From assembly GCA_044222065.1 (NCBI GenBank), contig JBGAOA010000030.1, forward strand, positions 1 through 51,698: a stretch of DNA of 51,698 bases. Reading direction: 5' to 3'. The position numbers were made by a program, and so were the translations under genes. The stretch's first letter is position 1. Every line of letters begins with the position of its first letter. The notes beneath the pieces are model-generated. The model did no database searches. It saw nothing but the letters and a program-made list of their open reading frames with translations, and had not been told where the DNA came from. Source of the DNA: Candidatus Eiseniibacteriota bacterium (GTDB lineage Bacteria; Eisenbacteria; RBG-16-71-46). Shown here one piece after another: positions 47,245-50,995 of this stretch.

Positions 47245-47274
47245 TTGACCGGCCGGAGAAGGCGGGCCTAGGCT
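47245..47274 (+). promoter_or_regulatory. Candidate sigma70-type promoter for the peptide/activator genes
   Basis: TTGACC-N18-TAGGCT preceded by a T-run. Confidence 0.4.
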
Positions 47275-47428
47275 CTTGTCAGCGATCGGGCTACGTCGCT
47301 GAGCGGCTGGAAGAAATCACCCCGTATCCATCCCCCACTTCCCGCCTCGAAGCCACGCGATAGCTCGATGGACCGGGGCCAGGCCATCGCCATGGCCCCA
47401 TTGTTCTTTTCGCAGGGGAAGGGAGTAC

Positions 47429-47797
47429 ATGCGTCGATTCGCAGCGAATCGGTGGATGGCGCTCGTTCTCGCAATCGCGATGTCGACTGCCACGCTCATC
47501 GCCTCGTACGGGACAGCGTCAGCGGACCCGTTCATGGGCGGTGATGGCGGCGACGACGGCGGCGTCGGCGGCAGCTCGGGAGGCGTCACCAATCCGCCCG
47601 TGCCCGGCCCCGGCAACTACGGCGATCCGGACGTTCCGGAGACCGGAGTCAAGCGGCTGTCGCCTCGCATGCAGGTGGGTCGGCTGGCGAGCACGCAGAC
47701 GAATTCGACCGCGGGTGACGGTCGCGTCGCGAGCGTGAGCTGGTTGCAGCGCTATCAGTGGGTGCTGAAGGCCTATTTGAAGGCGTTCATGCGCTAG
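47429..47797 (+). CDS. Small secreted Gly/Asp-rich protein (122 aa), possible signal-peptide precursor
   Basis: AAGGGAG RBS; signal peptide ending TASA; GG-rich stretch, GDPD, amphipathic C-terminal helix [19 protein letters not shown]. Confidence 0.7.
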
Positions 47798-47843
47798 TCG
47801 TCGTCGGGCCGCCAACGCAGTTCGTCGTGACCGGAGTGACCGA

Positions 47844-50245
47844 GTGTCGAGCTACGACCCGAACCGCATCACGCAGCTCGAGGAACAGCTCACGGTCGAC
47901 CCCCAGGGGGCCGAACCGCATCTGTCTGAGCTGGAGATGCTCGCCGATCTTTACCTGAACGCCGACAGCTACGTGCCGGCGCTGGAAACGATCGAGCGGC
48001 TCCTCCGATTGCCCGCGTCGAGAACGCTGTCCGCGACTCGACGCGCGGCGCTCGAGTCGAAGGTGATCGCCTGCCGACTGGCCCAGGGCCAGGCGCAGGC
48101 GGCGCTCGCGCACTGCCGCGAGGTGCTGGTCCAGGAGTCCGAGATCGACGCGCCGGCCGTTCGGGCGCGACTGCACCTCCAAACCGGGAATGCACTCTTC
48201 CTGCTCTCGCGGTTCGCCGAGGCCCGGGAGCAGGACGAGGTCGCGCTCCAGATCGCGGATGCGGCGAACGAATTCGCGCTGTCCGCCGCCGCGATCAATC
48301 AGCTCGGACGGGTCGCCTACCGGGAGGGCGATCTGCTGCGGGCGCGCGATCTCTACGAACAGGCGCTGGCGTTGTTCCGGCGCCTGGGGGACGAGGCGAG
48401 CTGCGGCATCCTGCGCAACAACCTCGGACTCGTGCACAAGCAGCTCTGCCAGTGGGAGTCGGCGATCCACTGCTTCGAGGCCGCGCTCGAGCACTACCGT
48501 CACGCCGGACGTTTCGCGCTGACGGGCGGCCTGCAGATCAACCTCGGCATCGTCTATCAGAAGCTCGGACAGTGGGCGCGCGCACGCGAGTGCTACCTCG
48601 CGGCCCAGCAGGTGCTCGAGCAGGTCGGCAACGATCGCCGGCTCGCGAACGTCGCCATCGGGCTCGGGAACGTCGCGCGCCTGGAGAGACGCTTCGTCGA
48701 CGCCGAAACGCACCTCCTCAGCGCGCTCGCGCGCGCCCGCGAGCACGCCGCCGCGCGCGAGGAAGCGCTCGCGCTCGAGTTCCTCGGCGAGAACGACTTC
48801 GATCGCGGCCGGCCGGAACGCGCGATCGAGCGCTACGACGAAGCGATGGCCATCGCGCGCCGCATCGCGCCCGAAGGCGACATCGTCGTCGAGCTCGAGC
48901 GGCGCCGCGCCGAAGCCCTGGCCGCTCTGCGGCGCTTCGACGACGCCGCGGGCGCCTGCGCGCGCGCGTGCGACCTCGCGCGGCGCACCGAAGACCGTTT
49001 CGAATTCGCCGTCGCGCACCGCGTGCTCGGCGACATCGCGTTCGGCGCGGGCCGGCGCGAGGACGCGGTGGGCGCGTGGACGCAGGCGATCGCGCTCCTG
49101 ACCGACTGCCGCGAGAAGCTCGAGCTCGGTCGCACGCACCTCGCGCTCGCTCGCGCGGCGAACGATTCGCGCGAGGGACGCCGGCACGCTTACCGCGCCG
49201 CGTCGCTGTTCTCGGAGCTCGGCGCGGAACACGCCGTGCGCGACGCCGAACAGATCCTGGAGCGGTTGCTCCAGAGCGGCGCGGAGCCCGCCCCGGCACC
49301 GCCCGCGTCGCTGCTCGGCCGCCGTCATCGTGCGCCGAGCCTCGTGGCCACCACCCCCGAGATGCAGCGCGTCGAGAGCCTCGCGCGCCGAGCCGCGGCG
49401 ACCGAGCTGTCGGTGCTGATCCTCGGCGAGACCGGAACGGGCAAGGAACTCGTCGCGCGCACGATTCACGGGCTGTCGCCCCGCGCGCCGCGCCCCTTCC
49501 TCGCGGTCAATTGCGGCGCGTTGCGCGCGGAGCTCGCGCTCTCGCAGCTGTTCGGCCACCGCAAGGGCGCCTTCACGGGCGCACGCCGAGGGCGCAGGAC
49601 TGGTCGAGGCCGCGAACGGCGGCACGTTGTTCCTCGACGAGGTCGGCGAGCTTCCGCACGACGTGCAGGTCACGCTGCTGCGGTTCCTCGAGACCGGCGA
49701 ATACCTGAGGCTCGGTGAGACGCAGGTGCGTCGCGCCGACGTGCGGTGATCGCCGGCGACGAATCGCGCGCTCCGTGGCAGGGCGAGGAGAGCGCCTGTT
49801 CCGCCGCGACCTGCTGTTCCGGCTCAACGAGATCGAGATTCGCCTTCCGTGCCTGCGCGAGCGCATCGAGGACGTCATTCCGCTCGCACGCCACTTCCTC
49901 GGCTTCTATGGCGGCATCGAGGGACCGCGCCTCACGCGTGCGGCCGAGAGCGTGCTGCTGGGCTACGCCTGGCCGGGCAACGTGCGCGAGCTCGAGAACG
50001 CGATGAAGCGGCTCGCCGCACTGTACGTCGGCGAGGGCGAGGTGGACGCCGAGGCCGTGACCTCGCTCTTGAGCCGCGACGAGGCGGTCGAGTCCGCCGT
50101 CGCCGTGAGTGGCGAGGACGAGCGCTCGCGCATGCTCAGCGCGCATCGCGAGTCGCGCGGCAACAAGAGCCGCATGGCCGAGCTGCTCGGGATCTCGCGC
50201 AAGACTCTGTACGCGCGGCTCAAGCGTCTGGGCCTCGAACTCTGA
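47844..50245 (+). CDS. TPR-domain sigma54-dependent Fis-family transcriptional activator (bEBP); frameshifted between ~49580 and ~49800 in this sequence
   Basis: TPR repeats ([26 protein letters not shown]); Walker [21 protein letters not shown]; shifted frame [18 protein letters not shown]...LLRFLE; last frame [45 protein letters not shown]. Confidence 0.9.
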
Positions 50246-50326
50246 TCGAAGTCCCTCGATGTGCTTCGCGGCGAGCCTGAAGGCTCGCCGTTTCGCTTTC
50301 CGACCGACTCGACGACCGCTTCCTCC

Positions 50327-50428
50327 GTGTCACCCTGTTACCGTGAGGTGACACTCCACCAACCACATGGCTTCCAACGGTTTGGTGGGATCGAGGGCCG
50401 CACCTCGTGTTACCGCAATCGGTGACAC
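50327..50428. promoter_or_regulatory. Two palindromic enhancer-like (UAS) sites
   Basis: GTGTCACC-c-TGTTACC-gtga-GGTGACAC (50327-50354) and GTGTTACCG-caat-CGGTGACAC (50407-50428). Confidence 0.65.
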
Positions 50429-50543
50429 CTCGAGCGCTCGAGCCTCGATCACGAGCGGGCATCACGAGCGCGTGGCGCCAAGAAAGCACGATTTTGGCGG
50501 GTTTTTCGCGCTACTCGCGTGTCCCACACCGATTCGTGACGAG

Positions 50544-50559
50544 TGGCACGCAGGGTGCT
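50544..50559 (+). promoter_or_regulatory. Sigma54 (-24/-12) promoter
   Basis: TGGCACGCAGGGTGCT: GG(50545-46)-N10-GC(50557-58), close to the TGGCACGN4TTGC(A/T) consensus. Confidence 0.75.
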
Positions 50560-50569
50560 GAGTGTCGTC

Positions 50570-50995
50570 CGCGGATACGGGGATCGTTGCTTCAACAGTA
50601 GTCGCAGGGGCGAGTCTCTCAGGGGAAGGAGACTCACGACCAAGGGCGGCCCGTTCGCGGGTTCGCACCTCCATCGGCGATCGAGGCCGCCCGAGGTCAG
50701 CCCCGCAATCGAAGCAGCGCTTCGCTCGCAGTAGATGTAAGTCGGAGGGCGACTCGATCGCCCGGGGCTCGTACCCAACTGACACTGCTTGATCTCGTTC
50801 AGTACTCGACTCGAAAGGGGTGAGAGGAACTCAGGTCAGTCGAAGTTGTCAGTTCGGTGAGTAGTGGTTCAAGTTCGTCACAAAAAACCAAATACGCCCG
50901 GTCAACGAAGCCGGGAGAGCAGAGGGGTTCATCCCGGTCACTCCCTGTTCTCTCGGGAAGAGGCAGCCAGAAGCAGTCGACCTGGCTGCCTTTTC
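50570..50995 (+). ncRNA. Candidate ~425-nt structured non-coding RNA of unrecognised family
   Basis: Lies between a sigma54 promoter and a terminator; many nested stems; no convincing RBS-start pair. Confidence 0.55.
50957..50995 (+). terminator. Rho-independent terminator
   Basis: AGGCAGCCAG (50961-70) / CTGGCTGCCT (50982-91) followed by TTT. Confidence 0.7.

Follow-up and report, generated by a model that had tools for sequence, protein, structure and literature searches.

We describe a regulatory locus in a contig of 51,698 nucleotides (nt; hereafter the window), whose host, judged by its relatives, belongs to Candidatus Eisenbacteria. The locus combines a small gene for a putatively exported protein with a GDPD motif, a sigma54 activator with an array of tetratricopeptide repeats (TPRs), and, behind a sigma54 promoter, a structured noncoding RNA (RNA 1). 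It is real, conserved, and undescribed in the searchable literature, and it joins two known regulatory logics. No description of the combination of peptide, TPR-sigma54 activator, and RNA was found in the literature searched, with most subscription papers and all supplements outside that search; large RNA-motif surveys may carry RNA 1 or its sister RNA 2 in their supplements. A first-pass annotation of the sequence had proposed a hybrid module in which a peptide-sensing TPR activator controls a regulatory RNA. The output half of this proposal is strongly supported by the conserved unit, and the peptide input is plausible, with weak support. Taken as a whole, the reading developed below, a peptide-fed, self-limiting sigma54 RNA circuit, has in our judgment an even chance of being right.

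The gene order is cysS (ending at 47154), promoter, 122-amino-acid (aa) open reading frame (ORF), activator, hairpin, palindromes, sigma54 promoter, RNA, terminator, cytochrome c-type gene, and tRNA, with a 46-nt gap between the small gene and the activator; every element listed in the first-pass annotation was found at its place on one strand. Scanning GTDB genomes for the exact 20-nt core of RNA 1 yielded 72 loci, whose titles name Eisenbacteria in 49 cases, are unnamed in 19, and bear other labels in 4; the three of these four that were included in a tree all nest among Eisenbacteria rows (a quick tree, suited to rough placement only). The expected synteny of small gene, TPR activator, and downstream region holds across these loci, with the activator (its end 392 to 1,311 nt before the core) and a sigma54 motif each lying upstream of the core in 72/72, and a small GDPD gene in 59 of the 60 that could be tested, 12 more being cut by contig ends. 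With up to two mismatches, the core is found in 79 of 206 phylum genomes (69/88 in family f1, 9/10 in family f3, and none in the other families searched), and 77 of 80 matches are exact. A profile of the small protein matches 98 of 201 phylum genomes, and its relatives form 334 clusters (E ≤ 0.001) in a 1.84-billion-entry library. As for neighbors, 53 of 54 loci have cysS upstream of the module, and 56 of 63 have cytochrome c or a tRNA downstream of it; because of the constancy of cysS, we take the module to be vertically kept. It belongs to the resident chromosome and is nearly always present in a single copy. One genome, G011, has two whole-module copies (G011:C3 and G011:C6), one of them with a split activator.

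The activator combines TPRs, Sigma54_activat, an AAA lid, and HTH_8 (Pfam), and with its AAA+ domain with GAFTGA, Walker motifs, arginine finger, and C-terminal helix-turn-helix (HTH) it has the features of a sigma54 bacterial enhancer-binding protein (bEBP). That the TPR array is its only sensory region, as first proposed, agrees with the Pfam results, in which no receiver, GAF, or PAS domain matches at E ≤ 0.01. In an AlphaFold model, residues 1 to 470 form an all-helical solenoid of 25 helices (mean predicted local distance difference test [pLDDT] of 95), and a fold search returns generic peptide-binding TPR solenoids. Across 28 orthologues of 789 to 867 aa, GAFTGA and the arginine finger are present in 28/28, FLDE in 24/28, and exact GETGTGK in 23/28. 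In the window assembly, the AAA+ part is spread across three frames (breaks between 49581 and 49786), which, together with an internal stop in one of the 28 orthologues and altered C-termini in two, would suit a decaying pseudogene in a coincidental neighborhood. Short-read contigs of near-identical strains, however, have 2 nt more at 49581 (run X17), 1 more at 49744 and 1 fewer at 49753 (X1, X3, X6, and X7), and 1 fewer at 49786 (X1, X3, and X7), and these corrections together restore one open frame. Since such independent contigs keep the frame open, we attribute the breaks to assembly errors; 27 of the 28 orthologues read without interruption across the AAA+ domain, and the linkage of activator and RNA holds at all 72 loci. 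The possibility of pseudogenization, raised in the first-pass annotation, was therefore discarded, and a decaying locus is in our view extremely improbable. A gltX-like ORF elsewhere in the window (41010 to 42671), in which part of the zinc-binding region seems missing and the start is out of frame, is a further sign of assembly indels.

The putative sigma70 site of the operon was left unflagged by a simple promoter scan and rests on conservation, the motif TTG-N3-N16-18-TA-N3-T lying 152 to 226 nt before the start codon in 58/58 loci, with a −10 element that is mostly TAGCCT. Behind the activator, the two palindromes and the near-consensus sigma54 promoter noted at first pass are conserved: a relaxed palindrome precedes the promoter in 60/71 loci, versus 0/71 control stretches inside the RNA, and the promoter motif is in every locus. 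In relatives, the palindrome pattern is almost confined to the module locus, and three palindromes outside it have no sigma54 site. At the sequence level, a cognate −24/−12 promoter, an upstream enhancer, and rpoN are all present, and we hold it highly probable that the activator switches on RNA 1. In the window's genome (G000), an enhancer palindrome and a sigma54-like site also stand before a gene for a 246-aa exported GEPD protein (L163, G000:C41:3284-4291), the C-terminal domain of which is common to many proteins of the family; this gene was not accepted as a regulon member, with no full-length relative in 60 family genomes.

The RNA 1 stretch folds at −195.5 kcal/mol (z = −5.4; 0/100 shuffles as good). 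Its 3′ stem-loop, compared across 70 distinct rows, has 91.8% of cells paired and 102 cells with two-sided changes, a count that 0/500 shuffles reach and that every slid control falls far below; for stem pairs with any two-sided change, 16/500 shuffles are as high. The expectation of some 425 nt of structured noncoding sequence followed by a terminator is thus well founded. Conserved short motifs are interspersed with variable helices, and the RNA has several G-rich loops and an A-rich stretch. Some f1 RNAs (L047/L071 and L035) are 90 to 130 nt shorter in the 5′ half, with the 5′ seed and the 3′ core kept, and that of L047 retains a 13-nt motif, discussed below, as well; because the shortened RNAs keep them, these three elements are likely essential. 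RNA 1 has no Rfam match at the gathering score, and at E ≤ 10 only tRNA and chance hairpins appear. A housekeeping RNA was ruled out, as 6S, RNase P, and SRP RNAs are on other contigs and one tmRNA was called outside the locus. We also rejected a small ORF behind the Shine-Dalgarno-like GAAAGGGGTGA, for which the alignments give no conserved start or frame. Another observation is a strong Shine-Dalgarno-like motif at 50813 to 50823 that has no start codon behind it and is kept in f3 loci lacking the loop that resembles the anti-Shine-Dalgarno sequence.

With respect to transcription, contigs from four RNA libraries of three studies begin at 50593, 50593, 50602 (from a relative), and 50613, just behind the predicted start at 50570; DNA contigs, unlike these, run through the sigma54 promoter region. 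The RNA-library contigs do not cover 50244 to 50571, but missing cover proves nothing; they also carry no strand or level information. The contig starts hint, weakly, at a separate transcript, and the start near 50570 that the first-pass annotation had anticipated is backed to that extent.

The 5′ end of RNA 1 offers a first target within its own operon. The seed GGATACGGGG is complementary to CCCCGTATCC, part of the apical loop of the predicted leader hairpin some 95 nt ahead of the small gene; among 3,172 gene leaders, this site ranks first for the seed. Seed and leader change together, with GGGTACGGG accompanying CCCGTACCC in five f3 loci and, separately, in L123, and AGATACGGG accompanying CCCGTATCT in L120 and L122. 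A comparison with a paralogous module (module 2; 30 loci, 26 after four with an unparsed part were dropped) shows that the module-1 seed finds at least 8 bp in 42/50 leaders of its own module versus 0/26 module-2 leaders, and the module-2 seed does so in 20/26 of its own versus 9/50 module-1 leaders. The module-2 RNA has the 5′ seed GGGGGGACC in 26/26 loci, and GGTCCCC occurs in 22/26 module-2 leaders. We consider it very likely that the 5′ end of RNA 1 pairs with the loop of its own operon leader, and feedback of negative sign is somewhat favored. A T-rich run, examined as the mark of an attenuator, follows the leader hairpin in 24/52 loci and is absent in the window. The RNA core matches the −35 region of the operon over 12 nt, but this match, unique in G000, is not conserved and was put down to chance; a csrA leader match seen by eye was dropped, being absent among the top duplexes.

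A candidate second feedback site lies at the activator's ribosome-binding site, which is complementary to the CCCGGUC seeds of RNA 1. ACCGGAG stands before the activator in 38/49 f1 loci and 0/7 f3 loci, GACC precedes GGAG at 20 of 1,595 GGAG sites genome-wide, and the site ranks 33 and 6 of 3,181 for the two seeds. A genome-wide search for CCCGGUC-seed targets (3,203 rough gene calls) gave no enrichment and no wider target set.

The association of a small gene with a TPR activator extends beyond module 1, in agreement with the pairing first proposed. All three TPR activators of G000 are preceded by a G(D/E)PD gene, the other two carrying GEPD; such a gene also stands in front in 26/30 module-2 loci for which both parts were parsed and, near-variants counted, in 9 of 11 distant paralogues (6 GDPD, 3 near-variant, 1 exported-type ORF without the motif, and 1 with none visible). 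Module 2 (L161, G000:C7:40000-48800) comprises a GEPD small gene, a 989-aa TPR-GAF sigma54 activator, a sigma54 promoter (C7:44718), and the ∼330-nt RNA 2, behind which come a second sigma54 promoter (C7:45229) and then lipoprotein and envelope-type genes. Its activator is found in 61/61 family genomes and 5/5 f3 genomes, and RNA 2 is a second conserved, uncatalogued RNA.

The conserved GGGTACGAGCCCC of RNA 2 is the exact reverse complement of GGGGCTCGTACCC in RNA 1, and the 13-mer has only these two occurrences in the 4.2-Mb genome. A perfect RNA 1-RNA 2 complement of at least 12 nt is present in 36/44 f1 genomes, versus one of at least 11 nt in 5/132 shuffles. In two genomes of one genus (G008 and G144), RNA 1 and RNA 2 have an identical one-base insertion; in G012, RNA 2 has this insertion and RNA 1 can pair by wobble, and in the five f3 genomes RNA 1 is without the motif and that of RNA 2 has drifted. 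The predicted duplex is far more stable (−28.4 kcal/mol) than that of the motif with RNA 1's own 5′ end (−9.3 kcal/mol), so RNA 2 could sequester RNA 1 or free its 5′ seed. That the two RNAs pair is likely, a shade less so than the leader pairing. The first-pass annotation had contained neither the leader pairing nor that with the sister RNA, and both complementarities are found in the sequence.

These complementarities also bear on whether RNA 1 is instead mainly a protein sponge like CrcZ or CsrB, with its short motifs serving as the DNA or RNA binding sites of one protein. Its size and position match cbrB-crcZ (PMC8871633), csrA is present and hfq was not found in the genome, and the G-rich loops, the A-rich stretch, and a 20-nt core that is nearly invariant without a proven target would all suit such a function. 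On the other hand, the motifs are reverse complements on two transcripts, in or forming hairpin loops, and change together; they differ completely between modules, yet are complementary within each. RNA 1 also has no repeated ANGGA loops, which are typical of CsrA sponges. A sponge is improbable, and both it and the pseudogene fit worse than the circuit proposed here and than the export sensor considered below. The CsrA proteins of Eisenbacteria are predicted to function only rarely in a standard assay (PMC13443453).

The small gene was first annotated as encoding an exported peptide. The gene is present and its N-terminus resembles a signal peptide, with a basic N-region, a hydrophobic core, and A-x-A at 30 to 32 (by inspection, not predictor; A at position 32 in 96 of 143 representatives), but the product is a protein of 94 to 122 aa (median, 113; 58 loci) with conserved ends rather than a short propeptide. 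GDPD is found in 142/143 and GDPDxP in 141/143 representatives, some 53 residues behind the N-terminus and 59 ahead of the C-terminus, between variable Gly/Pro linkers. The conserved ends are an N-terminal MxRFxxNRxW and a cationic amphipathic C-terminal helix that mostly ends in RF. No family in Pfam, NCBIfam, or the protein atlas describes the protein; the best three atlas clusters (score, 0.87 to 0.89) are unnamed, mostly Eisenbacteria, and a lead only.

In the activator, the basic TPR residues R160 and R305 are invariant (63/63), and the invariant TPR arginines are kept in 10 distant rows; GDPD fits as an acidic ligand because of these invariant basic residues. Complex prediction for TPR residues 1 to 470 with small-protein residues 52 to 83 scored 0.57, compared with 0.00 for the best of three controls (contact agreement between runs of at least 66%; partner pLDDT of at least 43). 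The mark applied is attained by 116/157 solved versus 2/215 mismatched pairs, and structural support is nevertheless weak, since the pairs attaining it with a score ≤0.60 are only 18 solved ones and both mismatched ones. Sensing of a peptide by the TPRs, as first suggested, is plausible to this degree, and the GDPD segment more probably binds the TPRs than does not. The genome holds four family-5 solute-binding proteins of peptide ABC transporters, and export followed by re-import as the route of the signal comes a little short of an even chance.

Several of these features can be read differently, with the small protein as a cell-autonomous sensor of export or envelope state, whose unexported precursor or membrane-clipped piece would bind the TPRs via GDPD while the RNA circuit stays the same. 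Invariance of the motif across species and paralogues is better explained in this way than by a peptide that leaves and re-enters the cell, MxRFxxNRxW and the C-terminal helix suggest membrane association, and the module-2 locus runs on to a second sigma54 promoter and to lipoprotein and outer-envelope-type genes. Neither outer-membrane crossing nor re-import is required, and the weak TPR-GDPD prediction fits equally. Against such a sensor, the signal peptide looks ordinary and cleavable (see position 32 above), each paralogous activator has its own cognate small gene with different flanks, which suggests private ligands, and the genome has peptide importers. We regard the export sensor as rather unlikely, though it is the main rival.

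In the peptide-fed circuit, one sigma70 promoter would serve the small gene and the activator, followed, in the order seen in the sequence, by enhancer, sigma54 promoter, and RNA. The small protein would be exported by Sec and its signal peptide cut, and the GDPDxP piece would be trimmed and returned to the cytoplasm, possibly via one of the peptide ABC transporters; there, this acidic piece may sit in a basic TPR groove and control AAA+ assembly, a step predicted only weakly. By analogy with established bEBP biology, the activator would then bind the TGTYAC palindromes and open the sigma54 promoter. RNA 1 would bind by its 5′ end to the leader hairpin at the apical loop, and its CCCGGUC seeds could, in f1, mask the ribosome-binding site of the activator; the most likely effect is negative feedback. 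Through pairing of the 13-nt hairpin with RNA 2 of the TPR-GAF module, each module would titrate the other. The probable trans-acting effector is the near-invariant 3′ ∼110 nt of RNA 1, which cleavage at the A-rich stretch may release. More tentatively, and with the balance against it, Eisenbacteria may have a family of one-component peptide-signaling modules in which a re-entering G(D/E)PD peptide, derived from an exported precursor, binds a TPR-sigma54 activator and each activator produces a large RNA of its own, with leader feedback and 13-bp hairpin-hairpin neutralization making up an Hfq-independent two-channel RNA switch. Such modules would be new to two-membrane bacteria, a group to which Eisenbacteria probably belong, given the envelope-type genes seen here.

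A number of observations weigh against this circuit. GDPD hardly varies across species or paralogous modules, a poor fit to kin-specific signaling and unlike specificity-diversified pheromones, and the label quorum-sensing-like used at first pass is thus not established; the precursor is long with a conserved C-terminal helix, neither of which a simple pheromone needs. The closest solved TPRs are those of LGN/Pins and kinesin light chain, with RapJ and NprR far weaker (E = 1e-11 to 1e-9). On the RNA side, the own 5′ end finds <8 bp in the own leader in 5/50 loci, the 12-bp RNA-RNA match is absent in 8/44 f1 and 5/5 f3 genomes, and the matching insertion represents one or two events among non-independent kin. 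The ribosome-binding-site match is missing in 7/7 f3 loci despite an unchanged seed, shows no compensatory change across loci, and could be a local hairpin instead, so that it stays a candidate; across the genome, start sites show no excess of GACCGG (76 vs 67). Transcription evidence is at the contig level only, and Hfq (PF17209) was not found in the one genome searched, which is 94% complete.

Table 1. Features of the locus, with positions in the window
Feature	Positions	Strand	Remarks
Sigma70-type promoter of small gene-activator operon	47245..47274	+	−35 TTGACC at 47245, −10 TAGGCT at 47269
Long 5′ leader hairpin, ∼90 nt	47283..47371	+	Apical loop TCACCCCGTATCC (47317-47329) complementary to RNA 1 5′ end; folds predicted in 52 loci
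Small protein, 122 aa	47429..47797	+	Sec-type signal peptide (putative; A-x-A at 30-32), acidic Gly/Pro linker, GDPDVP (47621-47638), basic linker, cationic amphipathic C-terminal helix
Activator ribosome-binding region GTGACCGGAG	47827..47836	+	Complementary to RNA 1 CCCGGUC seeds; candidate second feedback site
Sigma54 enhancer-binding protein, ∼800 aa	47844..50245	+	∼11-12 helical TPR-type repeats, AAA+ with GAFTGA (49566-49583), Fis-type HTH
Terminator-like hairpin behind activator	50269..50299	+	
Enhancer palindrome 1 (TGTYAC-N6-9-GTRACA)	50327..50354	.	Extra upstream half-site
Enhancer palindrome 2	50407..50428	.	
Sigma54 −24/−12 promoter TGGCAC-GCAGG-GTGCT	50544..50559	+	Motif in 72/72 loci
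Noncoding RNA 1, ∼430 nt (∼300-340 nt in f3)	50570..50998	+	Start inferred from sigma54 promoter
RNA 1 5′ seed GGATACGGGG	50573..50582	+	Complementary to operon leader loop
Loop GCACCTCCATC	50665..50675	+	Like 16S anti-Shine-Dalgarno sequence; f1 only
Small hairpin GGGGCTCGTACCC	50764..50776	+	Exact reverse complement of conserved RNA 2 motif (G000:C7:44831); pairs weakly with RNA 1 5′ end
A-rich stretch, near-invariant core AATACGCCCGGTCAACGAAG (50891-50910), and covarying stem-loop	50882..50956	+	Second CCCGGTC in loop
Intrinsic terminator-like hairpin	50957..50996	+	End of RNA 1

Further observations concern the paralogues. CCCGGTC, present twice in RNA 1, stands directly behind the 13-nt motif in some RNA 2 copies, which hints that the RNAs are related, and at the start of the module-2 activator frame (L164-L193) a conserved GATCCCCCCCGAT is complementary to the 5′ G-run of RNA 2, a possible second self-target. 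The third TPR sigma54 activator (L162, G000:C9:∼31900-34750, minus strand) has a GEPDEP small gene in front, no sigma54 motif behind the activator, and an N-terminal part that is apparently out of frame with the called gene. Paralogues in family f2 (L063, L065, and L067) have a sigma54 promoter followed by a different noncoding stretch of repeat units with GGGAGGGGTCC and GGGGTAGAGG; that of L063 has no Rfam match.

Whatever the input, the locus adds two RNA families missing from Rfam and one new small-protein family, and it offers three exact, mutable pairings as predicted here (RNA-leader, RNA-ribosome-binding site, and RNA-RNA). All of these are open to testing in E. coli reporters, with no need to culture the host. 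For a phylum represented by little other than genome bins, the locus is a first point of access to regulation.

Among known systems, the output half most resembles sigma54-driven regulatory RNAs. Vibrio Qrr RNAs repress luxO and luxMN, feeding back on the mRNAs of activator and receptor (PMC3262071), and an RNA sponge, QrrX, pairs with them (PMC9732341). As in LuxO-Qrr (LuxO being described in NCBIfam as a sigma54 regulator), a sigma54 activator would drive an RNA that feeds back on the activator's mRNA and has an RNA partner, QrrX there and RNA 2 here. In that system, however, LuxO is a phosphorylated receiver protein whose input comes from membrane kinases and small-molecule autoinducers, and the Qrr RNAs use Hfq; the present module has a TPR sensor, a co-transcribed and predicted exported protein, a ∼430-nt RNA, no Hfq found, and a partner RNA from a paralogous module, and an intact activator orthologue scores 234 bits in the LuxO family against a cut-off of 800 (NCBIfam). 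In Pseudomonadaceae, crcZ lies directly downstream of the sigma54 activator gene cbrB in conserved synteny (PMC8871633); here, too, the RNA gene adjoins its activator downstream, but kinase and receiver are both absent, and the evidence favors base pairing. In Myxococcus, an NtrC-like activator immediately precedes an enhancer, a sigma54 promoter, and the Pxr RNA, which has stem-loop seeds and is processed from longer forms (PMC5684412; PMC10217877). The layout of PxrK/PxrR-Pxr is the same as that seen here; its input is two-component, and it has no exported partner protein. The phosphorylated response regulator with a cognate kinase that LuxO, PxrR, and CbrB share is absent here, there being no receiver domain, and RNA 1 has no Rfam match to the Qrr, Pxr, or CrcZ family.

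The input half resembles the RRNPP systems (Rap-Phr, NprR-NprX, PlcR-PapR, and AimR-AimP), in which a TPR receptor gene stands beside a small gene with a Sec-type signal; the similarity of the activator to RapJ and NprR is weak. The five criteria applied to such systems include a propeptide of 10 to 100 aa, a receptor of 250 to 500 aa, TPRs, adjacent genes, and Sec export (PMC10075063). TPRs in the receptor and gene adjacency (59/60) are seen in the module, and the sizes of precursor (94 to 122 aa) and receptor (789 to 867 aa) fall outside those ranges. Unlike RRNPP systems, the module has an AAA+ sigma54 output, a host outside the Firmicutes, and a nearly invariant central motif, and the only conserved output found is an RNA. 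Cytoplasmic TPR peptide receptors have been described from Firmicutes, and sigma54-driven regulatory RNAs are known as outputs of two-component systems. If the circuit proposed here, which joins the two in an uncultured phylum, is right, peptide communication would be widened to a new envelope type, and sigma54 activators would gain a new class of input.

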